The position numbers and the translations under genes are program-made. From NCBI GenBank assembly GCA_964412105.1, contig CAYPNM010000006.1, positions 28,233-92,232 of the forward strand: DNA of 64,000 nucleotides. Reading direction: 5' to 3'. Shown piece by piece: positions 4,127 to 18,631 of this stretch (the stretch's first letter is position 1; each line of letters starts with the position of its first letter). The notes under the pieces are model-generated. The model was not told the DNA's origin. It searched no databases and was given only the letters and a program-made list of their open reading frames with translations. The stretch comes from an uncultured Ignavibacteriaceae bacterium. GTDB taxonomy: Bacteria > Bacteroidota > Ignavibacteria > Ignavibacteriales > Ignavibacteriaceae.

Positions 4127-4798
4127 TCAAAGATCAGGTGTTTTAATGTCCCCTTGCTTTTGCAGCTTTTTAAAAAGCATATATGGATAAATAAAAGCTG
4201 TGTAGAGCACCAGTGGTATAAGTATGACAAAAATGGATATAATTAGTTCCACATTTAAAAGGGTTAAGAGGATTAATAATATACCCCCGACCACAAAAAA
4301 GGCGCCTCCAATTCTATGAGTCTTTTTCCATACAACTTCAGATGCCAGGGTCCAGGGCGACCTTATTCCGAAGAAAAAATTTCTGGGGAGTTTTGGCAGG
4401 TAATTCCCCAAAAGGATAAACAACAAACCAAAGCCATAACCAAAGAGATCGCTCCGGAATGTTCCTTCTTTTGCGGAAATAAATGTGAGAAAGAAAATGA
4501 AAACAATAAATGCTACGGTCAAGTCTCGAAAAAGTAGAAATATGTCATATTTCTTTTCTATCCTTTTCCAGAAGGGGTCTATCATTGGAATGAATGTCAG
4601 GATAAGATAAAGACCAATCGAAGAAGCGATACTTATAAGTATCATGCTATCTTTTGAGGAATAGTTATCCGGCAGACCTTTTGCGTTGAAATGCGAAGGG
4701 ATTATTTGCGGTAGCTTACCGTAAAAGTAACCACAAATGACCAGAAGAATCAAAATCATTGATAAAGGGAAAATATCTCTCTTAAAATTCCATTTCAT
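4127..4798 (-). CDS. SdpI/YhfL-family membrane protein (DUF1648 + SdpI domains)
   Basis: IPSHFNAKGLPDNYSSK (DUF1648-like) and GIRSPWTLASEVVWKKTHR (SdpI-like). Multi-pass membrane protein. Its start lies 4 nt after the upstream ArsR-type gene. Confidence 0.8.
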   Translation of the reverse strand: MKWNFKRDIFPLSMILILLVICGYFYGKLPQIIPSHFNAKGLPDNYSSKDSMILISIASSIGLYLILTFIPMIDPFWKRIEKKYDIFLLFRDLTVAFIVFIFFLTFISAKEGTFRSDLFGYGFGLLFILLGNYLPKLPRNFFFGIRSPWTLASEVVWKKTHRIGGAFFVVGGILLILLTLLNVELIISIFVILIPLVLYTAFIYPYMLFKKLQKQGDIKTPDL

Positions 4799-4802
4799 AA
4801 TT

Positions 4803-5072
4803 TTACCTCTTCTTTTTTATTTGCATTAAATACTCCAGAGCCATATCGAAGACCGTCATATTTAATGAATATCTTATAAACTGACCTTCTCGTTCTCCTT
4901 CAATAAGGTTTGCTCTCTTCAAAATATCCAGATGATGAGAAAGAGTCGGTTGTGTGATCTCCATCTCCTCAAGCAATTCAGATGGAGTTTTTGCTTTATC
5001 CTTTAATTTCTGAAGAATATCTCTCCGTGAAGGATCCGACAATGCCTTAAAAACTTCTGTAAATTGTTGCAT
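4803..5072 (-). CDS. ArsR/SmtB-family transcriptional regulator (SdpR-like autorepressor)
   Basis: FKALSDPSRRDILQKL...TQPTLSHHLDILKRANLI winged-helix motif. I prefer the ATG at 5072 (MQQFTEV..) over the track start at 5096, because codons 1-8 of the longer form lie inside a 36-bp palindrome. Confidence 0.8.
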   Translation of the reverse strand: MQQFTEVFKALSDPSRRDILQKLKDKAKTPSELLEEMEITQPTLSHHLDILKRANLIEGEREGQFIRYSLNMTVFDMALEYLMQIKKKR

Positions 5073-5106
5073 ATTTATATATGTATAATTGTACATATAT
5101 AAATAT
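5071..5106. promoter_or_regulatory. candidate operator: 15-bp perfect inverted-repeat arms separated by 6 bp, overlapping the regulator start codon
   Basis: ATATTTATATATGTA-TAATTG-TACATATATAAATAT read directly from the sequence. Confidence 0.5.
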
Positions 5107-5269: not shown

Positions 5270-5548
5270 ATAATAAGATATAGATCTCAATTTTTAATTA
5301 AAAGGTAATATTATAGTGTGGACGAAGGCCTTAATTGTTAAATTAAATTCAGCAGCCTGCAGAATACAAGCAGGAATATGCTTGATAGACCCAGATCTCT
5401 CCAGCCTGCAATTTACAAATCCTTAACTGTGTACACTTTTCCGTTATTGGAAAAAAGGTACTTATGTTCGGTATGAAATTGAGAAATACCTTAATAACTG
5501 ACTGTTCCAGGCTACCAAGGCTTAGTTAAGACATATTGATATATCTGA

Positions 5549-5592
5549 AGCGTTTTCAGAGCGTTTTCAGAGCGTTTTCAAAGCGTTTTCAG
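5549..5592. repeat. tandem repeat, 4 copies of the 11-bp unit AGCGTTTTCAG (third copy ends in A)
   Basis: Read directly from the sequence. It lies in a 740-bp non-coding gap between the SdpR-like gene and the NmrA-like gene. Confidence 0.9.
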
Positions 5593-5837
5593 AGGCCATT
5601 TGAAGTGTATCTGGAAGAGAATGGAAGCCTTTAAGTGCAAGACAGATCCATATAATTTCTGAACTTTGCTAATTAACATGCGTTTTTCTTCATTTTGAGC
5701 CATGGCCCAGCATAAAGTACTGTAAATGAGACTTCTTCAATATTATTGGCTTTGTTTTGCATCAAAGATTCGGCATATTGCTAAAACCTAAAAGAATATA
5801 AATCCTACATTTAATTATAATTAAGAAGGAGACAATT

Positions 5838-6788
5838 ATGTCTGATAAGAAGATTATTGCTGTTATGGGTGCGACAGGTGCACAGGGCGGGGGAATGGCA
5901 AGAGCAATTTTAAATGATAAAAACGGTGAATTTGCAGTAAGGGCGGTTACAAGAAGTTCTTCCTCAGATAAGGCTAAAGAATTGGTTAAACTTGGTGCGG
6001 ATGTTGTTGAGGCTGATATAGATGATATACAAAGCTTGAAAAAAGTTTTTGCCGGATGTTACGGTGCATACTGTGTTACATTTTACTGGCACCATCTTTC
6101 TCCTGAAAAAGAACTTGCTCATGCCAAGGCAATGGCTGAAGCTGCCAAAGCAAATAACCTGAAGCATGTTATCTGGTCAACATTAGAAGACACGAGAAAG
6201 TGGATTCCGCTTAATGATGACAGGATGCCGACATTGATGGGTAAATACAAAGTTCCCCATTTTGATTCCAAGGGGGAGGCGAATGCATTTTTTAAAAATG
6301 CCGGAGTACCAACCACTTATTTGCATACGGCTTTTTACTGGGATAATTTTATTTACTTTGGATCAGGTCCTAAAAAGGGAGAAGACGGAAAATATGCGCT
6401 TATGTTCCCTTTAGGAGATAAAAAACTTCCAGCAATAGCAGCTGAGGATATCGGAAAATGTGCATATAGTATTTTTCAAAGGGGAACTGAGTTTATAAAT
6501 AAGAATGTCTGGATCACAGGAGAGAACCTAACGGGTTACCAGCTAGCTGAGGCAATGTCTGAAGCTTTAGGCAGGAAAATTGTTTATAAAGACATTCCTC
6601 CGGAAGTGTTTAGGGGATTTGGTTTTCCTGGTGCAGATGACATCGGAAACATGCTTCAGTTCAAAAGGGATTTTGAATCAGATTATTGTGGACCCCGCAG
6701 CAGGGAGTTTTCAAAATCACTAAACCCTGAATTAATGTCATTTAAAGATTGGCTGAAAAAGTATGCAGATAAAATTCCTTTAGAATAA
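5838..6788 (+). CDS. NmrA-family NAD(P)-binding protein
   Basis: AAGGAG 6 nt upstream. N-terminal VMGATGAQGG Rossmann motif. 316 aa, typical of the NmrA/HSCARG family. Confidence 0.85.
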   Translation: MSDKKIIAVMGATGAQGGGMARAILNDKNGEFAVRAVTRSSSSDKAKELVKLGADVVEADIDDIQSLKKVFAGCYGAYCVTFYWHHLSPEKELAHAKAMAEAAKANNLKHVIWSTLEDTRKWIPLNDDRMPTLMGKYKVPHFDSKGEANAFFKNAGVPTTYLHTAFYWDNFIYFGSGPKKGEDGKYALMFPLGDKKLPAIAAEDIGKCAYSIFQRGTEFINKNVWITGENLTGYQLAEAMSEALGRKIVYKDIPPEVFRGFGFPGADDIGNMLQFKRDFESDYCGPRSREFSKSLNPELMSFKDWLKKYADKIPLE

Positions 6789-6840: not shown

Positions 6841-7347
6841 TTACTTATCAACTTTTACTGAGTCATATTCTGCGGGAGTTACATTGTTCAGCTTTTTTAC
6901 GGCAGCCACAATAGTCCATATTTCATCATCGGAATGAGTTTTACCCCATGCAGGCATACCTGTCATTTTTATTCCGTTTTTGGTAACCCAGAATAAGTGT
7001 GCAGGATTCATTCTATATCCCCATTTATAAAGATTTGGTGGATCCGGATTCAGGCCTTTTGCCAAATCTGTTTCATTCATTCCGGGTGCATGGTGACATT
7101 GGGCACACAGCTCTTTATAACGTGAAATTCCTGCATTAATCATCCCAGGATTTTCCAGATCGGGTACTTTAATATCATCGGATCGTACATCAACTGAACG
7201 ATCGCTAGTTGTTTCAAGCACCCAGTGGATTATCCCTGCATCCGGTTCCATTGCGCTTACATTATATACGCCTGTGAGAATAATTATCAATCCTATTACT
7301 GCTAAACCGACTAAAGTGAATACTATACTCAGAATTATCTTTTTCAT
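6841..7347 (-). CDS. membrane-anchored mono-haem c-type cytochrome
   Basis: N-terminal TM anchor, a single CAQCH haem-binding motif, and a distal Met candidate in KMTGMPAWG. Confidence 0.85.
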   Translation of the reverse strand: MKKIILSIVFTLVGLAVIGLIIILTGVYNVSAMEPDAGIIHWVLETTSDRSVDVRSDDIKVPDLENPGMINAGISRYKELCAQCHHAPGMNETDLAKGLNPDPPNLYKWGYRMNPAHLFWVTKNGIKMTGMPAWGKTHSDDEIWTIVAAVKKLNNVTPAEYDSVKVDK

Positions 7348-7527
7348 ATTAGGCTACCTTTTAGTTTTATAAATAGCTGAGCTTGTTATGATAAAAATTG
7401 ATTAAATAAATCATTTAAAGAATCATAATAATATAATAAATATTACATTTTATTTAATATTAAAGTTCCCTTTTCCAAACGGCTAATAATATTTTAATTG
7501 ATGAATCTATTCTCAAATTATATCTTA

Positions 7528-9594
7528 CTATTTTAGCATTTTATTTTCGCGCTTTCGTCTAAGGACAGATATTATCATACCAATTGTTATAATAATTATC
7601 CCCAGCCATACAAGATTAATATTTGGCTTTATACTTGCATCGATTGTTAAAACCTCTTTTGGTCCGGTTTTATTGTCATCAATATATTCAGTTGGAGATA
7701 TATAAAAATCCTTGCTCAATCCCATTAATATGTCCGGTTCTCTCATAAGGCTGTTATTGTATTTCGAAATGTACATTATTGGTGCTGCATTCCAAGATGA
7801 TTTATTATATCTTATGACGACATTAAAAGCATACTTCTTTCCGTTATCAATCGCGTGGTATCCGGTAAATTCAAATTTGTGATGCAAGGCCTCTACGATT
7901 TTATCCTTTGGAAGTTTTATTTCCTGAGATTTTGAAAAATTGCCGGATATTAAAACACCCAGTAAAAAAAGTGCGAAACCGATATGTGCTATCTGCCCAC
8001 CTGTTAATAATCGATTTATCTTCACGTTTTTAGTAAAGTAACTCATATTAGTAACTACAGTAAATGAAATTCCAAGCGCAAGCAAAATATTTGCGATGGT
8101 ATCAATACCAACAACAAAAGCGATTATAGCAGTGATTGCAGCTGATATTAATAAGTGCAATCCCAATTCTTTTAGCATACTATCGGTATGAGTAGAGCGC
8201 CAGCGAAGAATAAGAGTTATGCTGATCAAGAAGGCCATTAAAATTACCAAAGGTAAATTCATCTCATTATAAAAACTTGTTTCAACCGATCTTCCGAATA
8301 TCGGGGCGGATGTTCCGACAATGATAATTACTGCTGAACCGAGTAATAAAGCAGAGCCATAAATCAGTCCGTTTTCGCGGCTAAAAAATGATTCTTTTAT
8401 TGTGCTTTTATTCTTTAATTTTTTCCACCGGAAAAAGACACCTCCGATTCCTATAGCAGTAAATGTTAATATAAAAGCCAGAAGAAATAGGTAAGTAGTC
8501 TCTCCCGGCGCTTCAAAAGAGTGGACGGATGCGTTTGATAGAATTCCGCTTCTTGTAAGGAAAGTGCTATAGATTACAAATACAAAAGTTAGTATAGATA
8601 ATACAAGGTTTGTCCTTACATATTTTCCTTCATTATCACCGCCCTGTGTATTTCTTTGAATTATTAACGTGTGAATTAAGGCAATTCCAATAATCCAGGG
8701 AACCAAACTTGAATTTTCCACCGGATCCCAGCCCCAGAAACCACCCCAGCCTAAAACGCCATAAGCCCAGTAACCACCAATCATTAACGCTAGGCCAAGT
8801 ACGCTCATTGCCGCTATTGACCACGGCAGTGATTTGTTGGTCCAGTCTTTGTATTCATTCATTGTAATTGCAGACATAGCAAAAGAATAAGGAACTGCGC
8901 ACAACGCAAAACCGACAAATAACAGGGGCGGATGTATCTGCATCCAGAAATTTTGAAGAAGAGGATTTAACCCCTTACCTGCAATCAGGAAATTGTTCAC
9001 AGGTATATTTAAACCGGAGAGTAATGCTTTTAACTGGGGACTAAATTTAACGAATTGTTCACCCCCCTTATTAGTAAAGATGAAATTTTGGATGTCAGGA
9101 ATAGTCAGATAACTGTGATTAAAATATTTTGCCGGCAAATAATTTGTATCTGACCAGAGATAGGAGAATGGATTTTTTAATAGAGGACTTATTAGTATTG
9201 CCAGGAATACAGCGACTAATGTGAAAAAAATCATAAAAGAAGCTTCTTGTCTTGAGTCGCCTGAAAGATATTTTATAAGAAAAATTCCTATTATTACTGT
9301 AAAGAAAAGCCATAACAAAAAACTCCCTTCCTGTCCTGCATAAAAGGTTGAGATCAAAAGACCCAGTGATAAGTCCCCGCTGCTGTATTCAAAAACGTAA
9401 TTGTATTGGTACTGATGAGAAAATATAAGATAAAGCAAAAATGCGCTTGCCAGGAATACCAGCATGCTCATGATTTGAAAACCATTCCTTGCTAAAGCCA
9501 AAGTATTTGAATAGCCCTTGAATGTATAATAATACATTGTTATTGTAAAAAGCCCTGCAAGAATTGCGAGTAAAATTAAAATGTCACCTATCAT
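7528..9594 (-). CDS. ccmF: cytochrome c haem lyase subunit, CcmF/NrfE family
   Basis: 688-aa polytopic protein with the Trp-rich motif WGGFWGWDPVENSSLVPW (the WDPVEN form is CcmF-type, not CcsA-type). Confidence 0.85.
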   Translation of the reverse strand: MIGDILILLAILAGLFTITMYYYTFKGYSNTLALARNGFQIMSMLVFLASAFLLYLIFSHQYQYNYVFEYSSGDLSLGLLISTFYAGQEGSFLLWLFFTVIIGIFLIKYLSGDSRQEASFMIFFTLVAVFLAILISPLLKNPFSYLWSDTNYLPAKYFNHSYLTIPDIQNFIFTNKGGEQFVKFSPQLKALLSGLNIPVNNFLIAGKGLNPLLQNFWMQIHPPLLFVGFALCAVPYSFAMSAITMNEYKDWTNKSLPWSIAAMSVLGLALMIGGYWAYGVLGWGGFWGWDPVENSSLVPWIIGIALIHTLIIQRNTQGGDNEGKYVRTNLVLSILTFVFVIYSTFLTRSGILSNASVHSFEAPGETTYLFLLAFILTFTAIGIGGVFFRWKKLKNKSTIKESFFSRENGLIYGSALLLGSAVIIIVGTSAPIFGRSVETSFYNEMNLPLVILMAFLISITLILRWRSTHTDSMLKELGLHLLISAAITAIIAFVVGIDTIANILLALGISFTVVTNMSYFTKNVKINRLLTGGQIAHIGFALFLLGVLISGNFSKSQEIKLPKDKIVEALHHKFEFTGYHAIDNGKKYAFNVVIRYNKSSWNAAPIMYISKYNNSLMREPDILMGLSKDFYISPTEYIDDNKTGPKEVLTIDASIKPNINLVWLGIIIITIGMIISVLRRKRENKMLK

Positions 9595-9651
9595 TTTATT
9601 TCCTGTAAATGAATGTTATAGTAATTCCTTGAGACTTAAGCATTTAATTAT

Positions 9652-10326
9652 TTATAATCCATAATAAACTTTGCTTTGATCCACTTTATATTTTGCCTCA
9701 TATTTACGTTTCAGCATTCCATATTTATTAGCCACTGCAACTATAATTCCATCTTCACTTATTTTCTTATCCAGTTTATCTTTTATAAAATTTCGTTCTT
9801 CATTAGCTTTATCGCAGTTGCAGATTTCCAGCGAATCTTTACAAGCACCGCATGAGCACACAAACTTGTTTGCAATATCAGTCACTCTACTGTCAGTATT
9901 TACGTTTGCGGCCAGGGTATTATAATTATTCTGTGAAGGGAGTTTAACATTATTATATCCTTCTGTCTTTGGCATAGATTTGAAAACAAGAAACACAAAT
10001 AATGCAAGAACAGCAGTAACAACTATCTTATGCTTTTTTATTTCATGAAACAAATTCAGATTATTTTGTACGTTTATGTTGTTCCTGATTCTTTTGGATC
10101 GTTTGTTTCTGTTTTTACTAGAAGAATTATGTGAGTGGTTGTTATGCCTCTGTGTTAAATTATTTCCACATTTCACACAAAAATTACTTGTGTTTTCATT
10201 TTCAGTTCCGCAATTGGGACATGAAATTGAATTATTGTTTTGTATTAATTCAGAACCGCAGTTTGTACAAAAACTGCTTTCTTTATAATTATCTGTATTA
10301 CATTTATGACATTTCATTATTCGCAC
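9652..10326 (-). CDS. fusion protein: double zinc-ribbon N-terminus, one TM helix, CcmH/NrfF-like CxxC domain at the C-terminus
   Basis: CHKCNTDN..CTNCGSEL and CPNCGTEN..CVKCGNNL zinc ribbons, followed by a TM helix (VVTAVLALFVFLVF). The segment CSCGACKDSLEICNCDKANEERNFIKDKL..ISEDGIIVAVANKYG aligns by eye to E. coli CcmH LRCPKCQNNSIADSNS..DLR....S..EIVDYMVARYG. Confidence 0.6.
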   Translation of the reverse strand: MRIMKCHKCNTDNYKESSFCTNCGSELIQNNNSISCPNCGTENENTSNFCVKCGNNLTQRHNNHSHNSSSKNRNKRSKRIRNNINVQNNLNLFHEIKKHKIVVTAVLALFVFLVFKSMPKTEGYNNVKLPSQNNYNTLAANVNTDSRVTDIANKFVCSCGACKDSLEICNCDKANEERNFIKDKLDKKISEDGIIVAVANKYGMLKRKYEAKYKVDQSKVYYGL

Positions 10327-10355
10327 TCCGATTAATTAGAAGTTGATAATTAATC

Positions 10356-10379
10356 AGCCCGGACCATCAAGACCGGGCT
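10356..10379 (-). terminator. possible terminator hairpin after the Met-rich gene
   Basis: 7-bp stem AGCCCGG / CCGGGCT with a 10-nt loop. The T-run on the minus strand is poor. Confidence 0.4.
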
Positions 10380-10395
10380 TTATTTAATTGAATAA

Positions 10396-10881
10396 TTACT
10401 TTTTGTCCAGCTTAAGATTATTCTCCTTTTGAAGGTAGTTCATCATCGACTGGTAATTGTTCATCATTGAGCCAAAGTTTTTCATCATGGAATTCATATG
10501 CCCGTGCAGACTTTTGTTTCCCATTAATTCGTTGTTGTTCATCATCTCATTCATTTGACCGGCCATTGAATTCATATACTTTCCCATTTGCTCCATATTA
10601 TTCATATAGGACATCATTGCTTGTGAGTGGTGCATTTGTCCCATATTCTGGTTCATTTGTGCCATCATAGCAACCATTTCACCGTACATCTGGTTCATAT
10701 TAGTCATCATATTCTGCATGTTCATCATATGTCCACCCATCATACCTTGGTGGTTCATCATTCCCCCGTTCATCATTCCGCTGGTGCTGTCCTGTGCATT
10801 TGATGTGAGTGTAAATGCAAAAGCAAAAACAATTGCAATGAACAGTTTACTGAAAATGTTTTTTACAAATTGCTGTAACAT
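10396..10881 (-). CDS. secreted methionine/asparagine/histidine-rich protein, candidate periplasmic Cu(I)/Ag(I) binder
   Basis: AAGGAG 8 nt upstream of the ATG at 10881. Signal peptide ..FTLTSNAQ. The mature part holds about 37 Met in about 130 residues by my count, 6 His and no Cys (MMNGGMMNHQGMMGGHMMNMQNMM...). Confidence 0.7.
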   Translation of the reverse strand: MLQQFVKNIFSKLFIAIVFAFAFTLTSNAQDSTSGMMNGGMMNHQGMMGGHMMNMQNMMTNMNQMYGEMVAMMAQMNQNMGQMHHSQAMMSYMNNMEQMGKYMNSMAGQMNEMMNNNELMGNKSLHGHMNSMMKNFGSMMNNYQSMMNYLQKENNLKLDKK

Positions 10882-11177
10882 CGTCTCAACTCCTTTTAAT
10901 ATTACTGATTGCATTACTTTATCAACTATATCCTGAAATTTGTAATGTTATTATTTAGTTATATATCCTTTAATGAGATACAAAAATATCTGTGTCAATC
11001 TTCTAGTGATCAATGAGCTTTTCTTATAGTTTATTATCAAAACGTACTTTCTCTTTATATAATTAAATTAACTTCAACAAGTATTTTACGCGTTACATTT
11101 TTTTATTTTTCTTTCATATAATTTGTATCTCATTCATAGACACTTCATTACTCTTAATCCTTTAGGAAATGTTCTCA

Positions 11178-11540
11178 CTATTTTACCTTAAATCCCGCCT
11201 TGATAAGAGTATCCTTTGCCTTCTTTAATGAAACCTCTTTTAATTTCATTCCGCACAGGGGGCATTTACCTGGTTTGTCGGAAATAACATTGTAATCCAT
11301 CATATCCTGAAAAACCTTTCCATCTTTATTTTCATCAATAGCATTAAGATCTATTACGCCTTTGCGTACAATAGAGTTCCCATCATCTTGCATCTTATGT
11401 GCAGAGTCTCTCATAGTTTCCATATTCCTTTTTTCGTGATTCATTGTGGAATCTGCCTTTTCCTGCGCAAATGAAAACGCAGTTAAAAAGAAAGAAAGGG
11501 AAAATGTTATTATTAAAGTCTTTCCAATTTTGTTTGACAT
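11178..11540 (-). CDS. secreted heavy-metal-binding-domain protein (CPxCGM module)
   Basis: AAGGA upstream of the ATG at 11540. Signal peptide ..FSFAQE. The C-terminal segment GVIDLNAIDENKDGKVFQDMMDYNVISDKPGKCPLCGMKLKEV is paralogous to the C-terminus of the adjacent CusB-like protein. Confidence 0.75.
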   Translation of the reverse strand: MSNKIGKTLIITFSLSFFLTAFSFAQEKADSTMNHEKRNMETMRDSAHKMQDDGNSIVRKGVIDLNAIDENKDGKVFQDMMDYNVISDKPGKCPLCGMKLKEVSLKKAKDTLIKAGFKVK

Positions 11541-11565
11541 TTTTGTTATTCCTTTTGTTATATTT

Positions 11566-11907
11566 TTATAGATTTTGAAGATCATTTACTTCGCCGGTTT
11601 TAATTCGTACAGCCTTTTCAACAGGAGTAACGAATATCCAGCCATCACCTCTTTGGCCAGTATGAGCGTATTTTGAAATTACACTTACTAATTTGTCGCT
11701 GTCTTCGGCATTACATATAAGCTCAATTTTAACAACCTTAGAGTACTTCTGAACATATTCAATAGAAAAACTGAATGCTTCTGAATCGGCCCATTCTGCT
11801 AATGCGTTAGCGTCAAGCAGAGTCATACCTTTTACGCCAGCTTCTTCCAGTTTCTCAATTACTATATCGGCTTTGTCGTGCCTGATATATGCTGTGATCT
11901 CTTTCAT
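11566..11907 (-). CDS. PII-superfamily protein, metal-efflux-associated type (PII-NG-like)
   Basis: 113 aa. MKEITAYIRHDK.. at the start and HTGQRGDGWIFVTPVEKAVRIKTGE at the end match the PII consensus TGxxGDGKIFV..V....RIRTGE. The T-loop is non-canonical. The start lies 1 nt after the cusA stop (TAAAATG). Confidence 0.8.
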   Translation of the reverse strand: MKEITAYIRHDKADIVIEKLEEAGVKGMTLLDANALAEWADSEAFSFSIEYVQKYSKVVKIELICNAEDSDKLVSVISKYAHTGQRGDGWIFVTPVEKAVRIKTGEVNDLQNL

Positions 11908-11908
11908 T

Positions 11909-14900
11909 TTAATCCCTCTCCTGATTGTTGCTGATAAGTTTTAATACTTGTTTTTTCTTTATCACATAAAATATCGCGGGATAGAAGGCCAGTTGGATTA
12001 TAAGTGCAGTAATTATTCCCCCGAACATCGGTGCCGCGATTCTTTTCATTACATCTGAACCGGAACCGTGCCCGATAAGGATCGGCAACAAACCTAGAAG
12101 CAGAACAGAAACCGTCATCACAACAGGGCGTATTCTTCTGACAGCGCCTTGAAAGATTGCTTCTTTTAATTTTTCAAGAGAAGTGAGCAATCCCTCCTTT
12201 TTCATATTTTCATAGGCGATTTCAAGGTATAATAACATCACTACACCCATTTCAGCACTCACACCAAGTAATGCAATTATACCGACCCAGACAGCAACGC
12301 TCAAATGATATCCTGCAAGATATAAGAACCAGGTCGCACCGACCATTGAAAACGGGAGAGCCAACACGATTATACCCGTATTAATAAATGACTTTGTATT
12401 GAAGTAAAGGAGAAGCAATACAATCAATAATGTAAGCGGAAGAACCATAGCAAGTTTCTTTGCAGCTCTTTCCATATATTCATATTGTCCGCTCCATATT
12501 AGTGAATACCCCTGAGGAAGTTTAATTTTTTGAGCAATAATTTTTTGTGCATTCTCTACATAAGTTCCGACATCTATATCTTTCAAGTCGATATAAACCC
12601 ATGCATTCGGCCTCGCGTCCTCTGATTTAATAACCGGCGGACCCTTACGAATTATAACATCGCCAAGTTCCTCGAGTGGAATATTTCCGCCTCCGGGCAA
12701 TGGGACCAATACCCGTTTCAATGCTTCGATATTATCACGGTAATCCCGCTGATAACGCAGATTAACAGGGTAGCGTTCAAGTCCTTCTACCGTTTGAGTA
12801 ATGTTCATTCCGCCAACAGCTGACATAAATACATTTTGAACATCGGCAATTGTGAGTCCGTATCTCGCAATTGCGTTCCTGTCTATGTTGAAGTCTACGT
12901 AATTCCCACCGGCAGATCTTTCAGCGTAGACAGAACGCGTACCAGGTATTGTTCTGGTTACTTCCTCAATTCTTTTCCCAATATCCTGAAGTACATTTAG
13001 ATCCGGACCTGCAATCTTAATTCCTACAGGAGTTTTAATTCCTGTTGAAAGCATGTCAATTCTTGTTTTGATCGGCATCGTCCAGGCATTTGTAAGGCCA
13101 GGGATTTTTACAGCTTTATCCAGTTCATCAACGAGTTTTTCGCGTGTCATTCCTTCCGGCCATTCATCTTCGGGTTTTAATTGAATGGTAGTTTCAATCA
13201 TTGAAAGCGGTGCCGGGTCTGTGGCTGTTTCTGCACGACCAACTTTCCCGAAAACAGTTTTAACTTCAGGAAATGTTTTTATAATTTTATCTGTTTGCTG
13301 CAGCAATTCTTTTGCTTTGGTTATAGAAATTCCCGGTAGTGTTGTAGGCATATAAAGCAGGTCGCCTTCGTATAAAGGCGGCATAAATTCAGAGCCCAAT
13401 TTTGAAAATGGTATATAGCTGCCGATAACAATTAATAATGAAAGAATTATTACCCACCATCTTCTCTTCAAAACAAAGTCAACGATTGGATGATAAACAT
13501 TCATTAAAAATCTGGTAATAGGGTTGCTTTCTTCCTTTTTCATTTTACCGCGAATAAAATAGCCCATTAAAACAGGAACAATTGTAATTGCAAGAATAGC
13601 ACCTGCTGCCATCGAATAAGTCTTGGTAAAGGCCAGGGGTTTAAATAATCTTCCTTCCTGCGCTTCGAGTGTGAATACAGGAATAAATGAAACTGTTATC
13701 ACAAGGAGAGAATAGAAGATTGAAGGACCGACCTCTTTTGAAGATTCAAGAATCACTGCCCAATGGGGTTTTCGTTTATCTTCAGGTAAAAGCTGGTTAT
13801 GCAGAATATGTGTGTGCGAGTTTTCCACCATAATTATTGCTGCGTCCACCATTGCACCTATTGCAATTGCAATTCCTCCAAGAGACATTATATTTGCATT
13901 CAGTCCCTGAAATTTCATCACGAGAAGTGCCGCAAGTACAGCCGTAGGCAGTGTGAAAATTGCAACAAGGGAACTCCTGAAGTGAAGAAGAAAGAGAATA
14001 ATTATCAGAGCAACGATAAGACCTTCTTCAAGAAGTTTGTCGCTGAGGTTGTCCACAGCTTTGTGTATAAGTTCGCTTCGATCGTAAACAGGAACGATCT
14101 TTACATCGGAGGGGAGAGAAGCCCGCAACTCTTTTAATCTTTGCTTTACTCTATTAATTACCGCAAGTCCGTTTTCACCGTAACGTTGAATAATAATTCC
14201 CCCTACCACTTCTCCTTCACCATCTAAATCTGCTATACCTCTTCTTAACTCGGGACCGATATCAATGTGGGCAACATCTTTAAGGTAAACAGGCGTACCG
14301 GTGCTTTGATTTGTGCCAATTGCAATGTCCTTGAGATCATCAACGTTTTTAATATAACCCAGCCCTCTGACCATAAACTCAGTTTCTCCCATTTCCATTA
14401 AACGGCCGCCAACATCGTTATTGCTTTGCTTTATTGCCATTTTAACTTTACTAAGAGAAATGTTGTAAGAAGCTAATTTGGTCGGATCAACATTTACCTG
14501 GTACTGTTTGACAAAACCGCCTACGCTTGCAACTTCAGAGACACCCGGGATTGCAGAAAGTTCATATTTTAGAAACCAGTCCTGGATGGATCTTAATTCC
14601 TGTAAGCTCCTAGTGTTGGACTTTAAAGCGTATTCATAAACCCAGCCAAGTCCTGTTGCATCGGGCCCAAGTTCAGGTGATACACCTTCAGGAAGTGAAC
14701 TTCTCATTGAGTTGAGATATTCAAGAACACGGCTTCTAGCCCAGTAAAGATCAGTTCCATCCTCAAAAATTATGTAGACCATCGAAAACCCAAAGAACGA
14801 GTAACCTCTTACATCTTTTGCGTAAGGAACGGAAAGCATTTTAGATGTAAGCGGGTATGTTACCTGATCTTCAACTATCTGTGGACCCTGTCCCGGATAT

Positions 14901-15085
14901 TTAGTAAATATAATTACCTGTACATCGCTCAGATCAGGTATGGCGTCTACTGCTGTGTTTTTAATTGCCCATATCCCGCCGAATATCAATGCTGTGGTTA
15001 AGAGGATAACTAATATTTTATTATTAATTGACCACTCTATTATTTTGGCAATTATTCCGTCTTTTGCTGGATTATTTGTTGTCAT
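11909..15085 (-). CDS. cusA: heavy-metal efflux RND pump, CusA-type (Cu/Ag)
   Basis: 1058 aa with 12-TM RND architecture. WTMPIKTRIDMLSTGIKTPVGIKIAGPDL matches the monovalent-cation (CusA) HME subgroup. Confidence 0.92.
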   Translation of the reverse strand: MTTNNPAKDGIIAKIIEWSINNKILVILLTTALIFGGIWAIKNTAVDAIPDLSDVQVIIFTKYPGQGPQIVEDQVTYPLTSKMLSVPYAKDVRGYSFFGFSMVYIIFEDGTDLYWARSRVLEYLNSMRSSLPEGVSPELGPDATGLGWVYEYALKSNTRSLQELRSIQDWFLKYELSAIPGVSEVASVGGFVKQYQVNVDPTKLASYNISLSKVKMAIKQSNNDVGGRLMEMGETEFMVRGLGYIKNVDDLKDIAIGTNQSTGTPVYLKDVAHIDIGPELRRGIADLDGEGEVVGGIIIQRYGENGLAVINRVKQRLKELRASLPSDVKIVPVYDRSELIHKAVDNLSDKLLEEGLIVALIIILFLLHFRSSLVAIFTLPTAVLAALLVMKFQGLNANIMSLGGIAIAIGAMVDAAIIMVENSHTHILHNQLLPEDKRKPHWAVILESSKEVGPSIFYSLLVITVSFIPVFTLEAQEGRLFKPLAFTKTYSMAAGAILAITIVPVLMGYFIRGKMKKEESNPITRFLMNVYHPIVDFVLKRRWWVIILSLLIVIGSYIPFSKLGSEFMPPLYEGDLLYMPTTLPGISITKAKELLQQTDKIIKTFPEVKTVFGKVGRAETATDPAPLSMIETTIQLKPEDEWPEGMTREKLVDELDKAVKIPGLTNAWTMPIKTRIDMLSTGIKTPVGIKIAGPDLNVLQDIGKRIEEVTRTIPGTRSVYAERSAGGNYVDFNIDRNAIARYGLTIADVQNVFMSAVGGMNITQTVEGLERYPVNLRYQRDYRDNIEALKRVLVPLPGGGNIPLEELGDVIIRKGPPVIKSEDARPNAWVYIDLKDIDVGTYVENAQKIIAQKIKLPQGYSLIWSGQYEYMERAAKKLAMVLPLTLLIVLLLLYFNTKSFINTGIIVLALPFSMVGATWFLYLAGYHLSVAVWVGIIALLGVSAEMGVVMLLYLEIAYENMKKEGLLTSLEKLKEAIFQGAVRRIRPVVMTVSVLLLGLLPILIGHGSGSDVMKRIAAPMFGGIITALIIQLAFYPAIFYVIKKKQVLKLISNNQERD

Positions 15086-15216: not shown

Positions 15217-16776
15217 TCATCTCTTATATTCAAAACCGTGTTCGGTTAAATTCTTCTCAACTTCTTTAATAGTGAATTCTTTTAATGTCATTCCGCAAAT
15301 CGGACATTCTCCAGGTTTATCCGAAATAACATTCCAGTCCATAATGTCTTCGTAAAGCTTTCCATCTTTATTTTTATCGATTGCAGAAAGATCAATAACG
15401 CCTTTTCTTATCCTTTGATCTTTAATTTCGGAATCTTCTTTTTTGCTCATATCTTTCATAGAACCTGATTTTTCGGAATCCATTTTCATGGTTGTATCTT
15501 TTTTCTCTGCACCGAACTGCGATAATGCTGCTCTAAGATTGCTTTCGGAATCGATCAGGAATTGGGCTGAAGTTACTATTGTATTACCAGCATTTACTCC
15601 GTTAAGAACCTGATAGTAACCATCTGAATAATCGCCAAGCTTAACTTCAACGGGTTTGAATTTCCCGTCGCCCAGAGCAAGAATTACGATATCTTTTTGC
15701 CCTGTACGAAGGACGGCCTGTTCAGGAATAACCGGATAATCACCAAGGTTTTTTCCGTTAATAACTATATTAGCAAACATCGAAGGTTTTAGCTGGCCAT
15801 TGTAGTTCGGCATATCAAATCTTACTTTTACAGTCCTTGTTTTATCATCAAGAGTAGGATAGATAAAAGATATTTTGCTTTTAAATGTTTTTCCAGGCAG
15901 GAATGTAAATGTAATGTCAGCAGGCGATCCTAATTGTATCTTTGGTAATTCGTATTCGTAGATGTCTGCTAACAACCATAGATTATCCAGGTTTGCTATT
16001 TTCAACAGCGGAGTACCCGCGCCTATTTTTTGTCCTTCAATTACATTTTTATGAATTACTGTTCCGTCGAATGGAGCATAAAGCGTAACATATTTTTTTA
16101 TTTCTTTTGTGTTCTCTATTCTTTTGATCTCAGAATCAGGGACATCCAACAACTGGAGTTTTCTTACACTGTTATCTATAAGATCTTTGCCGCTTCCGGC
16201 GATACTTTTATCGCTGCTATTCATTACTGAATAACCGTAAGAAAGGGCGGTAATCAGTTCCTGCTGTGCAGCAACAAGCTCCGGTGAATAAATGTCGATC
16301 AACTTCTGACCTTTCTTAACCTTTTGCCCGGTATAGTTAACATAAAGTTTTTCGACCCATCCGCTGACTTTTGTATTAACTATATATTCTTTCTGTTCGT
16401 CAGTCTGAAGAATACCGTTTGTAATTACCTGCGAGCTTAGATTTTTCGTTTCAACTTTTGCAGTTTTAACATTCATGTTCTGCTGAACAGCTCCGCTAAT
16501 TGTTACAATTCCACCTCCTGAAGCCTCATCTTCATATACAGGTACCAAGTCCATTCCCATTTTTGATTTGCCGGGATGATCATAAACTTCGCTTGGATTC
16601 ATCGGTGCACGCCAGTGTAGTATCTTTCTTTCTTTTTGAGCCGTTTGATTTATATTGTTATTCGTATTGGCTGTACTACTACCCGATTTATTTAGCCAGA
16701 GAAACATCAGCACTGCTATTATTACTATGAGTATTCCGATTATAATGTTTTGCGTTTTCACTTTATTATTCTCCAA
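15217..16776 (-). CDS. cusB: efflux RND periplasmic adaptor (CusB-like) with an extra C-terminal CPxCGM metal-binding module
   Basis: HWRAPMNPSEVYDHPGKSKMGMDLVPVYE N-terminal metal-site motif, followed by barrel-sandwich/beta-barrel MFP regions. The C-terminal segment is GVIDLSAIDKNKDGKLYEDIMDWNVISDKPGECPICGMTLKEF. Confidence 0.9.
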   Translation of the reverse strand: MENNKVKTQNIIIGILIVIIAVLMFLWLNKSGSSTANTNNNINQTAQKERKILHWRAPMNPSEVYDHPGKSKMGMDLVPVYEDEASGGGIVTISGAVQQNMNVKTAKVETKNLSSQVITNGILQTDEQKEYIVNTKVSGWVEKLYVNYTGQKVKKGQKLIDIYSPELVAAQQELITALSYGYSVMNSSDKSIAGSGKDLIDNSVRKLQLLDVPDSEIKRIENTKEIKKYVTLYAPFDGTVIHKNVIEGQKIGAGTPLLKIANLDNLWLLADIYEYELPKIQLGSPADITFTFLPGKTFKSKISFIYPTLDDKTRTVKVRFDMPNYNGQLKPSMFANIVINGKNLGDYPVIPEQAVLRTGQKDIVILALGDGKFKPVEVKLGDYSDGYYQVLNGVNAGNTIVTSAQFLIDSESNLRAALSQFGAEKKDTTMKMDSEKSGSMKDMSKKEDSEIKDQRIRKGVIDLSAIDKNKDGKLYEDIMDWNVISDKPGECPICGMTLKEFTIKEVEKNLTEHGFEYKR

Positions 16777-16792
16777 AATTATTTACTTAATT

Positions 16793-18067
16793 CTACCTAC
16801 CGGCAGGCAGGCCTGTACCTGTTAAAAATACTAATTCAGCTATCTTTTTGAGATAATCTGTTTTTAATTTGTATAGATTAGTCTCAATCCTGTATAGCTG
16901 ATTTTGTGCGTCTATTACATTTATAAAATCGACTTTATTAACCTGATAGCTGGAAAGCGCTGAACTCAGATTTTGATGTGCCTGTGGAAGCAGACCTGTT
17001 TCGAATAAGTTGATTCTGTCTTTTATTGAATTAAGATCAGTAACAGCAGTCCCGAACATTCCATCAAGGTTCTGAATTGCATTATAATACTGCTCCGAGT
17101 AAAGTTCCTGAATAGAAGTTGCTTCCTGGACTTTAGAAGAAATTTTTCCACCGTAATTTATTGGCAACGAAATACCCACTGAGAATGAAAGAAAATCAGC
17201 CTGATCCATACCCGTTTTCTCGAGTGTACCTCTTTGGCCATATTGAACACCGAGAGTAAAATTCGGTAGATAATCTTTTTCAGCAACTCTTTGTTTTAGC
17301 CTTCCTTTTTGCTGCGCAAGTTGGATTCCCTGCAGGAAAGGCCTGTTCGCCCTTGCTAATGAATCAAGCTGTTTTACAGTAACATTGATCGTCTTTATTG
17401 AATCGAAAGTTTCAGTATAAACGGGTGTGCCCGCATCCTGCAAAAGCAGCGCATTTAAGCCTGAAAGTACGGAACCTTCCATGCTTTTCAGATTTTCTAT
17501 TTTATCTATAATATTTGTTATTTCTAATTGAACTTTTATAAGGTTTTGCTGGCTTGCTGTTGATACAGAGTACTTTGTGCTTACCACCTGTGAAATTTTC
17601 TCAAGTAAATTTTTACTTTCTCCAGCATATTCGATGCTTTTTTTGAAAAAGCTTAGTGAATAATATTTCTCACAAACGTTTTTTTTAATTTCGTTCTCAG
17701 CATCCTGTATTTCTTTATCAATTATAAGAGTATCTACTGCAGCTGCATCTTCCATGGCAGATAATTTGCCCGGAAATGGAATTGTTTGCTGAAGGCCAAT
17801 TACTTTTTGTGTCATGGGTTCCTGGTCGAATGAAAAGGAATTTGTCGGCATATTCATCAAACCGAGCATCAGCATAGGGTTCGGCAAATTAGAAACCTGC
17901 GGGATTTGATTCTCCGCAACATTTCTTTTGGCGCGCAGCATTTTAAGTTTTGGGCTTACCAGGATGGCTTTATTAATAAGGGAATCCAACTGTGCCGTCT
18001 GTGCATAAAGATTGTTTATGCATGTCAGCGCAAAAGTTGCCAAGCCTATAAGAATTAATTTTTTCAT
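16793..18067 (-). CDS. cusC: TolC-family outer-membrane efflux protein (CusC-like)
   Basis: 424 aa with a signal peptide and a two-repeat coiled-coil/beta-barrel OEP pattern. It is immediately upstream of cusB (16-nt gap). Confidence 0.85.
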   Translation of the reverse strand: MKKLILIGLATFALTCINNLYAQTAQLDSLINKAILVSPKLKMLRAKRNVAENQIPQVSNLPNPMLMLGLMNMPTNSFSFDQEPMTQKVIGLQQTIPFPGKLSAMEDAAAVDTLIIDKEIQDAENEIKKNVCEKYYSLSFFKKSIEYAGESKNLLEKISQVVSTKYSVSTASQQNLIKVQLEITNIIDKIENLKSMEGSVLSGLNALLLQDAGTPVYTETFDSIKTINVTVKQLDSLARANRPFLQGIQLAQQKGRLKQRVAEKDYLPNFTLGVQYGQRGTLEKTGMDQADFLSFSVGISLPINYGGKISSKVQEATSIQELYSEQYYNAIQNLDGMFGTAVTDLNSIKDRINLFETGLLPQAHQNLSSALSSYQVNKVDFINVIDAQNQLYRIETNLYKLKTDYLKKIAELVFLTGTGLPAGR

Positions 18068-18199: not shown

Positions 18200-18631
18200 T
18201 TAAATCAGAAGGACTGAGTTGTTTAAATATAGGGTGTTGCTTTGAAGCAGAGGAGGAGAAGTATCAATATATGTATAAGTGGAAATTTCTTGTTCTGTTT
18301 CTGAAGAGATATTATTAGATACAGGGAGAACTATATTAACTGATTGATTTTGAGATTCTGTTTTATTTGATATATAAGAATCTTTAACACCAATAGTGAT
18401 AAATTCCTGTGAGCAGCAGTTTTCATCTTTAAATGTAATGCTTTTTTCGGCTGCTTTTTTCATTTCAAAAGGACAATTCAATTCATTTGTTTCCTTTCCG
18501 GATGTAAGCAGAGAGCATTCAGTTTTTATCGCTTTATTCAAGATATTACAGAATTCTACAGAGAATGGCAGTCCCGTTGTTGAAACGAAGAACAAAAAGA
18601 GTAAGGTTAATGTGGATACTTTTTTTATCAC
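18200..18631 (-). CDS. small secreted Cys-rich protein resembling the HYC_CC_PP family
   Basis: GTG start. N-terminal hydrophobic segment ..FFVSTTGLPFSVEFC (position of the HYC motif), ENCCSQEF (CC motif), and C-terminal SPPLLQSNTLYLNNSVLLI (PP motif). It is the first gene of the efflux operon. Confidence 0.55.
   Translation of the reverse strand: MIKKVSTLTLLFLFFVSTTGLPFSVEFCNILNKAIKTECSLLTSGKETNELNCPFEMKKAAEKSITFKDENCCSQEFITIGVKDSYISNKTESQNQSVNIVLPVSNNISSETEQEISTYTYIDTSPPLLQSNTLYLNNSVLLI

Follow-up and report, generated by a model that had tools for sequence, protein, structure and literature searches.

A 64,000-nucleotide stretch of DNA from an uncultured Ignavibacteriaceae bacterium (contig CAYPNM010000006.1, positions 28,233 to 92,232; hereafter the window) carries a gene for an extremely methionine-rich secreted protein beside a Cus-type operon. 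The open reading frame (ORF) lies at positions 10396-10881 of the minus strand and encodes 161 amino acids plus the stop codon, and the product is a member of an unnamed family, described below. The mature chain of 131 residues has 37 Met (28.2%), 23 Asn, 13 Gly, 11 Gln, 6 His, and 0 Cys. A first-pass annotation had claimed a Met-rich secreted ORF at this position, and its counts of 37 Met, 6 His, and no Cys were exact. Met makes up 23% of the whole ORF, as against a median of 2% and a runner-up of 6.7% among the 52 window ORFs of at least 100 amino acids. This Met content is among the highest known for natural proteins. The Met-richest seed storage proteins have a comparable content.

The gene has its own Shine-Dalgarno (SD) sequence, as had been claimed: AAGGAG lies at 10890-10895 (-), 8 nt 5′ of the ATG at 10881. 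The block comprising the SD sequence and the ATG (AAAAGGAGTTGAGACGATG) has the same letters in L016, a locus from a metagenome-assembled genome (MAG) labelled Ignavibacteriaceae. A longer ORF reaching to 10914 was considered and rejected: although the SD-ATG block is shared with L016, the homologous extension there is interrupted by a stop codon. The ratio of nonsynonymous to synonymous substitution rates (dN/dS, Nei-Gojobori method) is 0.05-0.24 when the window gene is compared with three relatives, and the six pairs together span 0.05-0.31. Thus, this is a protein-coding gene under purifying selection. Judged from the sequences, the ORF is a real gene for a secreted protein, with a conserved SD sequence and start codon.

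A Sec signal peptide was read from the sequence at residues 1-29 (10795-10881 (-)), and AlphaFold2 predicts a helix at residues 2-27. An Ala-Gln pair at the end of the signal peptide is conserved throughout the family, with Gln in 15/15 members at that column. Because of this Gln and of the -3/-1 rule, cleavage at SNA|Q is more likely than at NAQ|D. Thus, the signal peptide claimed to end in ..SNAQ holds up, and its boundary probably shifts by one residue, which changes nothing else. An N-terminal Gln rule has been described for Bacteroidetes (PMC5837995). The signal peptide has no lipobox Cys, and the protein has no C-terminal domain of the type IX secretion system.

Is this protein an isolated curiosity or a member of a family? 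Homology searches revealed a rare, collinear family. In 1.84 billion representative proteins, searched exhaustively with phmmer, only 12 matches were obtained (E ≤ 0.001); two profile searches, which covered 5.8 billion clusters, brought in about a dozen further members. All of the matches are unnamed, apart from "hypothetical protein". When the window protein and 13-18 members were scanned against Pfam and NCBIfam at E ≤ 1, only sub-threshold coiled-coil noise was obtained (DUF948, syntaxin, PqiB). The full-length members are 145-183 amino acids long and collinear: a signal peptide ending in A-Q is followed by a Met/Gly/His-rich stretch and three blocks, with the consensus hMMxMQxMMxxMxxM ... 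G.M.H ... MMxxMxxMGxxMxxxxxQMNxxMxDxExMxDxxMxxHxxSMxxNMxxMMNxYxxM. The window protein has the A|Q signal peptide, the Met/Gly/His tail, and three Met-heptad helices, and its length falls in the same range. The protein of the closest relative, P0001, is the same sequence in three contigs and is without 26 residues (102-127 of the window protein).

The similarity goes beyond composition. Against eight distant members, the mature window sequence reaches 20-38 bits, and against four more, 3-13 bits. For shuffled sequences of matched composition, the mean is -5 to -15 bits; eleven of the 12 targets have z = 7-15, and P0015 has 3.9. The scores still collapse when the Met positions are fixed and only the other residues are shuffled (z = 5-9). 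Both controls therefore indicate homology beyond shared composition or Met periodicity, and similarity of composition only was rejected as the explanation. On the strength of these alignments, the protein belongs to a rare, undescribed family of Met-heptad periplasmic proteins. In the literature, neither a Met-heptad or "methionine zipper" copper protein nor a Met-rich cus accessory protein of Bacteroidota or Ignavibacteria was found described.

The Met residues of the window protein are arranged in a regular order. Met-Met pairs spaced at i+7 are enriched (21 observed vs 9.7 expected, z = +4.8), as are pairs at i+10, i+11, and i+14. Pairs at i+2 are depleted (1 observed vs 10 expected, z = -4.0), and so are those at i+9. 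A Fourier analysis of the Met positions has its maximum at 105 degrees per residue. The spacing and this maximum are typical of heptad a/d positions on α-helices. AlphaFold2 was run on the full-length protein (model 1) and on the mature chain (model 2), and the two layouts agree. Both runs predict three helices with a predicted local distance difference test score (pLDDT) of 75-85, preceded by a segment of low confidence (pLDDT below 50; residues 28-54 in model 1, 31-51 in model 2). This segment corresponds to a putatively flexible N-terminal Met/Gly/His tail, residues 30-50 (QDSTSGMMNGGMMNHQGMMGG; 10732-10794 (-)).

Helix 1 is placed at about residues 51-80 (10642-10731 (-)) by AlphaFold2, periodicity, and column conservation. 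Its heptad-core Met residues are 52/53, 55, 58/59, 62, 65, 69, 72/73, and 76, and columns 55 and 58 hold Met in 17/18 members. The loop GQMHHS (residues 81-86; 10624-10641 (-)) was delimited by column counts, and its G81 is present in 11/14 members. Column 85 in this loop between helices 1 and 2 is occupied by Met (10) or His (7) and nothing else in 17 members; such a Met/His exchange is sensible for a metal ligand but not for packing. Helix 2, at about residues 87-120 (10522-10623 (-)), was recognized from AlphaFold2 and conservation. It carries the conserved motif M-x-x-M-G...Q-M-N-x-x-M-x-D-x-E-x-M, and its M110 and M120 are Met in 18/19 members. Helix 3, located in the same way at about residues 123-154 (10420-10515 (-); to residue 160 in one prediction range), has a perfect 4-3-4-3 Met heptad (125, 129, 132, 136, 139/140, 143, 146, and 150), and M146 is Met in 18/19 members.

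Over the 32 hydrophobic core columns of 20 sequences with a mean identity of about 25%, Met accounts for 66% of the residues, Leu for 12%, Ile for 5%, and Val for 4%. In every member, Met constitutes 49-84% of Met, Leu, Ile, Val, and Phe together, and the GC content of the host DNA ranges from 31 to 66%. The high-GC relatives keep Met and replace Asn by Gln, Ala, Arg, or Gly. Thus, the Asn-richness, and with it the Asn/Gln spacing that had been regarded as distinctive, is largely a compositional effect of low GC, whereas Met is maintained by selection. The conservation suggests that the core Met residues are kept as Met, as a ligand rather than a generic hydrophobe. The earlier proposal of an intrinsically disordered metal sponge is retained with confidence for the tail only, since the remainder has a strict heptad Met register, column-conserved Met, and three helices predicted at pLDDT 75-85. 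When the family profile was searched against the PDB, it matched only de novo designed antiparallel helical bundles, and none of CopM, CusF, Csp, or Spy. In a Foldseek search of the PDB, neither of the AlphaFold2 models had a match with E < 1, and the best geometric match was again a designed bundle (TM-scores of 0.5-0.6).

The Cus-like operon lies upstream on the same strand. It is headed by a gene for an HYC_CC_PP-family protein (18200-18631 (-)), followed by genes for an OEP/TolC-like outer-membrane factor (16793-18067 (-)) and a CusB-like adaptor with heavy-metal-binding domains (HMBD; 15217-16776 (-)), both assigned by Pfam/NCBIfam scans. The next gene encodes a CusA-type Cu(I)/Ag(I) pump of the resistance-nodulation-division (RND) type (11909-15085 (-); TIGR00914, 1204 bits). 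A small P-II-like protein (11566-11907 (-); Pfam P-II, E = 1.1e-16) and a small secreted HMBD protein (11178-11585 (-); Pfam HMBD, E = 2.3e-9) complete the operon. Compared with E. coli CusA (3k07), the pump has a score of 1238 bits, and with ZneA, one of 559 bits. When it is aligned to E. coli CusA, M573, M623, and M672, the methionines that bind Cu(I)/Ag(I) in the CusA structures, are all conserved. By its gene content, the operon is Cus-type, with an OEP, a CusB-like adaptor, and a CusA with the Met triad. The adjacency of the Met-rich gene to a cus-like operon was thus correctly noted, but the distance is 296 nt rather than 260 bp, measured from the stop codon of the HMBD gene (11178) to the start of the Met-rich gene, which is about 1 kb from the end of cusA. 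No match to CusF was found among the scanned ORFs of at least 90 amino acids in window positions 400-23,300, and no P-type ATPase was found in the window. The P-II-like gene overlaps the stop codon of cusA; like the HYC_CC_PP gene, it is a poorly understood accessory of heavy-metal efflux RND (HME-RND) operons in these bacteria. The HMBD protein of L016 (3-494) has a Met/His-rich N-terminal stretch (MGKMDHSMMMDSTKHKMMDHKKMHNMDMMKDSSMHKMKMKNHSTMMDS), of which the window HMBD protein has a short version only.

Downstream of the Met-rich gene, the minus strand carries genes for a zinc-ribbon protein (9652-10326 (-)), a divergent CcmF/NrfE-like protein (7528-9594 (-); 245 bits vs a cut-off of 569), and a c-type cytochrome (6841-7347 (-)). 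These genes (6841-10326 (-)) lie inside the copper island and recur with it in several lineages (L001 10524-13332, L027 7722-9788, L017 4292-6679, and L008 807-2290). The zinc-ribbon protein has a Cys-rich C-terminus (CSCGACKDSLEICNC), and a weak CcmH match was seen in L008. The trio could be a cytochrome c maturation or redox module specific to copper islands. Copper is known to be toxic to cytochrome c assembly (PMC4600104). A few kb from the island, a gene for an ArsR-family helix-turn-helix regulator (4803-5096 (-)) adjoins a gene for an SdpI/YfhL-family membrane protein (4127-4798 (-)).

Several non-coding elements surround the Met-rich gene. A GC-rich, terminator-like hairpin was found by folding at 10356-10379 (-), 17 nt after the stop codon of the gene, with a minimum free energy of -17.6 kcal/mol (z = -3.7; 0/200 shuffles fold as well). 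It was not called by the consensus terminator scan because its T-run is weak. The spacer after the HMBD gene gave no convincing hairpin on folding (z = -1.3). Thus, the Met-rich gene either ends the cus transcript as its last cistron or is transcribed on its own. The consensus promoter and terminator scan of 9500-12000 found fewer promoter-like sites than in shuffles. A 20-nt motif (ACTAAATAATAACATTACAA; 10940-10959 (-)), about 60 nt 5′ of the start codon, is a candidate promoter or operator. It occurs only once in the window and is unchanged in L016 despite the divergence of the remainder of the spacer. The spacer also contains a perfect 13-bp inverted repeat (AATGAGATACAAA at 10972-10984 and TTTGTATCTCATT at 11122-11134), a candidate regulatory element with arms 137 nt apart.

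Are the relatives of the gene also found near metal-resistance genes? Consistent absence of such linkage had been set beforehand as a refuting condition. Soft-metal resistance genes are present in 12 of the 14 informative arrangements, as copper genes or, once, as merA; L011 and the P0010 contig are too short to judge and stand outside the 14. In eight Ignavibacteria-type arrangements (relatives at 48-81% identity, including the MAG labelled Ignavibacteriaceae), the Met-rich gene keeps its place by the P-II/HMBD end of the cus operon, and the rest of the neighbourhood is rearranged; this group comprises the window with L004, L001/L002, L016/L026, L024, L025, L027, and L028. The HMBD gene neighbours the Met-rich gene in L004, L016, L025, and L028. 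The order in L001/L002 is OEP, CusB, CusA, P-II, HMBD, cytochrome c, Met-rich, zinc-ribbon, CcmF-like, and, further on, a CPH-type ATPase. In L027, it is OEP, CusB, CusA, P-II, HMBD, CcmF-like, Met-rich, SHOCT, and, further on, an ATPase. L016/L026 has HMBD, Met-rich, SHOCT, and a CPH ATPase with a His-rich N-terminus. The shorter orders are P-II, Met-rich, and SHOCT in L024; CusA, HMBD, and Met-rich in L025; and P-II, HMBD, and, after other genes, Met-rich in L028. In the contigs of the closest relative (L001 5254-8423 and 10001-10441; L002 2494-5467), the RND gene is in three pieces, for which frameshifts or assembly errors are possible.

The distant relatives (24-37% identity) have other surroundings. 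In L012-14, the Met-rich gene follows genes for a CusA-type RND pump with the Met triad, DUF2231, DUF302, SHOCT, CopA (YHS, 2 HMA, CPC), cupredoxin, and YHS proteins. In L018-23 (66% GC; a clade member is labelled Gemmatimonadaceae), the order is Met-rich, outer-membrane barrel, OEP, CusB, CusA with the Met triad, 2 DUF411, and thioredoxin-like. L017/L029, from a Bacteroidetes MAG, has CcmF-like, CopB-type CPH ATPase, MerR, Met-rich, barrel, OEP, MFP (membrane fusion protein), and Czc-like RND genes. L008-10 has HMBD, two zinc-ribbon proteins, a MacB-type ABC (ATP-binding cassette) gene, barrel, Met-rich, barrel, and DUF2231. L015 has a bona fide MerA (763 bits, cut-off 600), Met-rich, and barrel. 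A gene for a small membrane protein with a SHOCT domain is found repeatedly, either immediately following the Met-rich gene or immediately preceding that of the copper P-type ATPase (L016 1344-1583; L024 1109-1327; L027 10567-10791; L012 4242-4421; L007 4517-4735; L001 13352-13576).

In five lineages, the Met-rich gene has as its immediate neighbour, or at a distance of no more than a few hundred bases, a gene for an outer-membrane β-barrel (Phenol_MetA_deg type) of about 280 amino acids: L008, with barrel genes on both sides (4199-4963 and 5524-6378), L012-14 (L012 8785-9672), L015 (2296-2946), L017 (10512-11363), and L018-23 (L018 10503-11345 and L023 10448-11266). Where the barrel gene is directly 3′ of the Met-rich gene, the two overlap or are separated by 1-13 nt. 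No barrel homologue was found in the window or in the other Ignavibacteria-type loci. The Met-rich gene and the barrel gene may form a two-gene module within copper islands.

The protein was compared with the known periplasmic copper and silver proteins. SilE and PcoE have 10 strictly conserved His in MxxHxxxxxHxxM / HxxMxxxHxxM motifs, with 10 Met in SilE and 15 in PcoE, and SilE is disordered until it binds about six Ag(I) and then becomes helical (PMC5008109). Like them, the window protein would be a small, Sec-exported periplasmic protein without Cys, with Met/His ligands on helix-forming segments, encoded next to a CusCBA-type pump. Unlike them, it has 37 Met in a long heptad pattern on three predicted helices, and in place of the ten-His motif there are 6 His, none of them invariant. 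No SilE/PcoE match to the window protein was obtained in NCBIfam or Pfam, either at E ≤ 0.01 or at E ≤ 1, where the HMMER filters drop most matches above about 0.1. CopM of Synechocystis, a DUF305 protein of 196 amino acids with 23 Met and 8 His whose gene adjoins an HME-RND system, binds Cu(I) tightly and forms a four-helix bundle with the ligands facing the lumen (PMC4335983; bioRxiv 10.1101/013581). The window protein resembles it in being periplasmic, Met-rich, near an RND system, and, by prediction, all-helical. It differs in having three predicted helices vs four, 28% Met vs about 12%, and no conserved HH motif; the HH at its residues 84-85 is not conserved, column 84 being Gln/Met/His and column 85 Met/His. 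None of the 21 family members scanned matched DUF305 (PF03713). The claim that the Met density is far beyond these models is borne out, with 37 Met vs 10 in SilE, 15 in PcoE, and 23 in the 196 residues of CopM.

The likely niche, that of a small periplasmic accessory of a Cus pump, resembles that of CusF in the E. coli cusCFBA operon. CusF is a five-stranded β-barrel (OB-fold) with one Met2His(Trp) site, whereas the Met-rich protein is predicted to be all-α with dozens of Met and has no PF11604 match. The copper storage proteins Csp1 and Csp3 are four-helix bundles that store many Cu(I) with Cys thiolates. The likeness to them is conceptual, in that sulfur ligands line the core of a helical bundle (cf. 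PMC12510493). Unlike them, the window protein lacks Cys, would use thioethers, has three predicted helices, and gave no sequence or Foldseek match. For CpxP/Spy/ZraP (PF07813, PF13801), the single match was sub-threshold (Metal_resist, 15.8 bits vs a cut-off of 29.2) and lay on the signal peptide of P0007. The tail, MMxGGMMxHxGMMGG, resembles the flexible Met/His-rich capture segments of Ctr1. The Met-rich segments of CueO and PcoB/CopB (PMC12041951, PMC12509749) are likewise similar to it. In all of these proteins, such segments are appendages of larger enzymes or channels, but here the Met-rich sequence is the whole protein. With neither a model match nor a conserved His pattern or HH motif, and with a different number of helices, the protein belongs to neither the SilE/PcoE nor the CopM family; nor is it a CusF, Csp, or CpxP/Spy/ZraP protein. 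By analogy, it would work most like a SilE/CopM-type binder, as an analogous and not a homologous protein, and it may fold on metal binding as SilE does.

The composition and order of the Met residues and the location in metal clusters together point most likely to a new kind of periplasmic soft-metal binding protein. With moderate confidence, based on sequence, models, and analogy, I read it as a soluble protein of the periplasm that binds or chaperones Cu(I)/Ag(I) by means of thioether-lined helices and would serve as a buffer or chaperone for the adjoining copper-export machinery. The metal binding, its stoichiometry, the tertiary or quaternary structure, and the hand-over partners are what I infer for the protein. 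The floppy tail of roughly 20 residues (MMNGGMMNHQGMMGG) would capture metal ions. The three amphipathic helices, in which Met occupies almost all of the heptad a/d positions and often those at e/g, would assemble into a bundle or coiled coil with a thioether lining, whether by packing or by folding when metal binds. The interior would offer several Met3 or Met2His sites, with the few His assisting. The metal would then be held, or passed to the three-Met sites of CusB/CusA, and in other lineages perhaps to the co-encoded outer-membrane β-barrel. Three-Met coordination is found in CusA and CusB, and Ctr1 has Met rings; thus, Met3 layers are chemically plausible. I also consider a bolder version, doubtful at this stage, in which the entire core of a monomeric or oligomeric bundle is a stack of methionine layers that binds a column of several Cu(I)/Ag(I) ions through thioether-only Met3 sites.

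Several observations weigh against a Cu(I)/Ag(I) binder. The protein has no Pfam, NCBIfam, or PDB family match and thus falls into no characterised family. The predicted template modelling score (pTM) of both AlphaFold2 runs is 0.43-0.45, a low tertiary confidence; the secondary structure is credible, but the packing is not established, and the thioether-lined interior is a model. The 26 residues absent from P0001 correspond to the end of helix 2 and the following loop, which is a warning against a rigid, tightly defined monomeric bundle. None of the 6 His is invariant, and the best columns have only 40-47% His. No metal genes were seen in L005/6 and L007, the latter having a SHOCT gene and a rhodanese-like gene. 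The gene neighbourhood is also compatible with an envelope-stress role that involves no metal binding.

A rival reading is that of a periplasmic holdase chaperone, whose flexible, Met-lined helical faces would bind unfolded or mis-metallated envelope proteins under copper stress, and not the metal. Precedents exist in the SRP54 M domain with its "methionine bristles" and in calmodulin with its Met patches. The amphipathic helices do have an almost purely Met hydrophobic face, and the low fold confidence suggests a plasticity that the indel tolerance in P0001 fits. Copper is also known to damage periplasmic protein maturation (PMC4600104). However, there is no similarity to Spy, CpxP, ZraP, or another chaperone family, the Met/His-only column points to a ligand role, and the gene is coupled to transport components (the cus operon tail and the barrel), not to proteases or foldases. 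I therefore regard a holdase as unlikely. It is quite unlikely that the protein is a periplasmic subunit, plug, or adaptor of the Phenol_MetA_deg-like barrel with a structural or gating role, the barrel gene having been lost or relocated in the window lineage. The tight coupling to barrel genes in five lineages speaks for this, but the Ignavibacteria-type loci are without the barrel, the barrel family is without an established function, and the Met-specific conservation would be left unexplained. A barrel partner would be compatible with a metal binder, because the Met-rich protein could deliver metal to the barrel.

The first-pass annotation had offered a methionine-sulfoxide sink as an alternative, in which the Met residues are a sacrificial antioxidant that scavenges reactive oxygen species or hypochlorous acid from copper redox cycling. 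The extreme Met content and the periplasmic location would suit it, as would the thioredoxin-like/AhpC-TSA genes in L018 and L023. It finds no support in the gene context, as no MsrA, MsrB, or MsrPQ gene was found in any locus examined. Moreover, a sink needs exposed Met rather than heptad-registered, position-conserved Met, and the Met/His column is not explained. It is thus very unlikely. That the ORF is spurious, a degenerate low-complexity sequence without function, could be suspected from its low complexity and the lack of a known domain. This is effectively refuted by the dN/dS values of 0.05-0.31, the conserved SD sequence and start codon, the conserved synteny, the ordered similarity in the shuffle controls, and the collinearity of the family across phyla and over 31-66% GC.

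The handling of Cu(I)/Ag(I) in the periplasm has so far been understood from a few proteobacterial and cyanobacterial proteins, namely CusF, SilE/PcoE, CopC, CopM, and CueO. If the metal is bound as proposed for the Met-rich protein, the family would provide a very simple natural scaffold for thioether-only multi-ion sites, which would be of interest to bioinorganic chemistry, protein design, silver and copper resistance, and metal recovery. If the methionine-layer stack is true, the protein would be a periplasmic, oxidation-tolerant thioether counterpart of the cysteine-lined Csp proteins, and possibly a Cu(I) store or "wire" that feeds CusB/CusA or an outer-membrane barrel dedicated to it. 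The uncharacterised pairing of the gene with one for an outer-membrane barrel, which recurs in the family, may provide copper with a route across this membrane. If the reading as a Cu(I)/Ag(I) binder is true, the Ignavibacteria, Bacteroidota, probably Gemmatimonadota, and others would have an unrelated answer to the handling of these metals, in which the hydrophobic core itself is made of the ligand residue.

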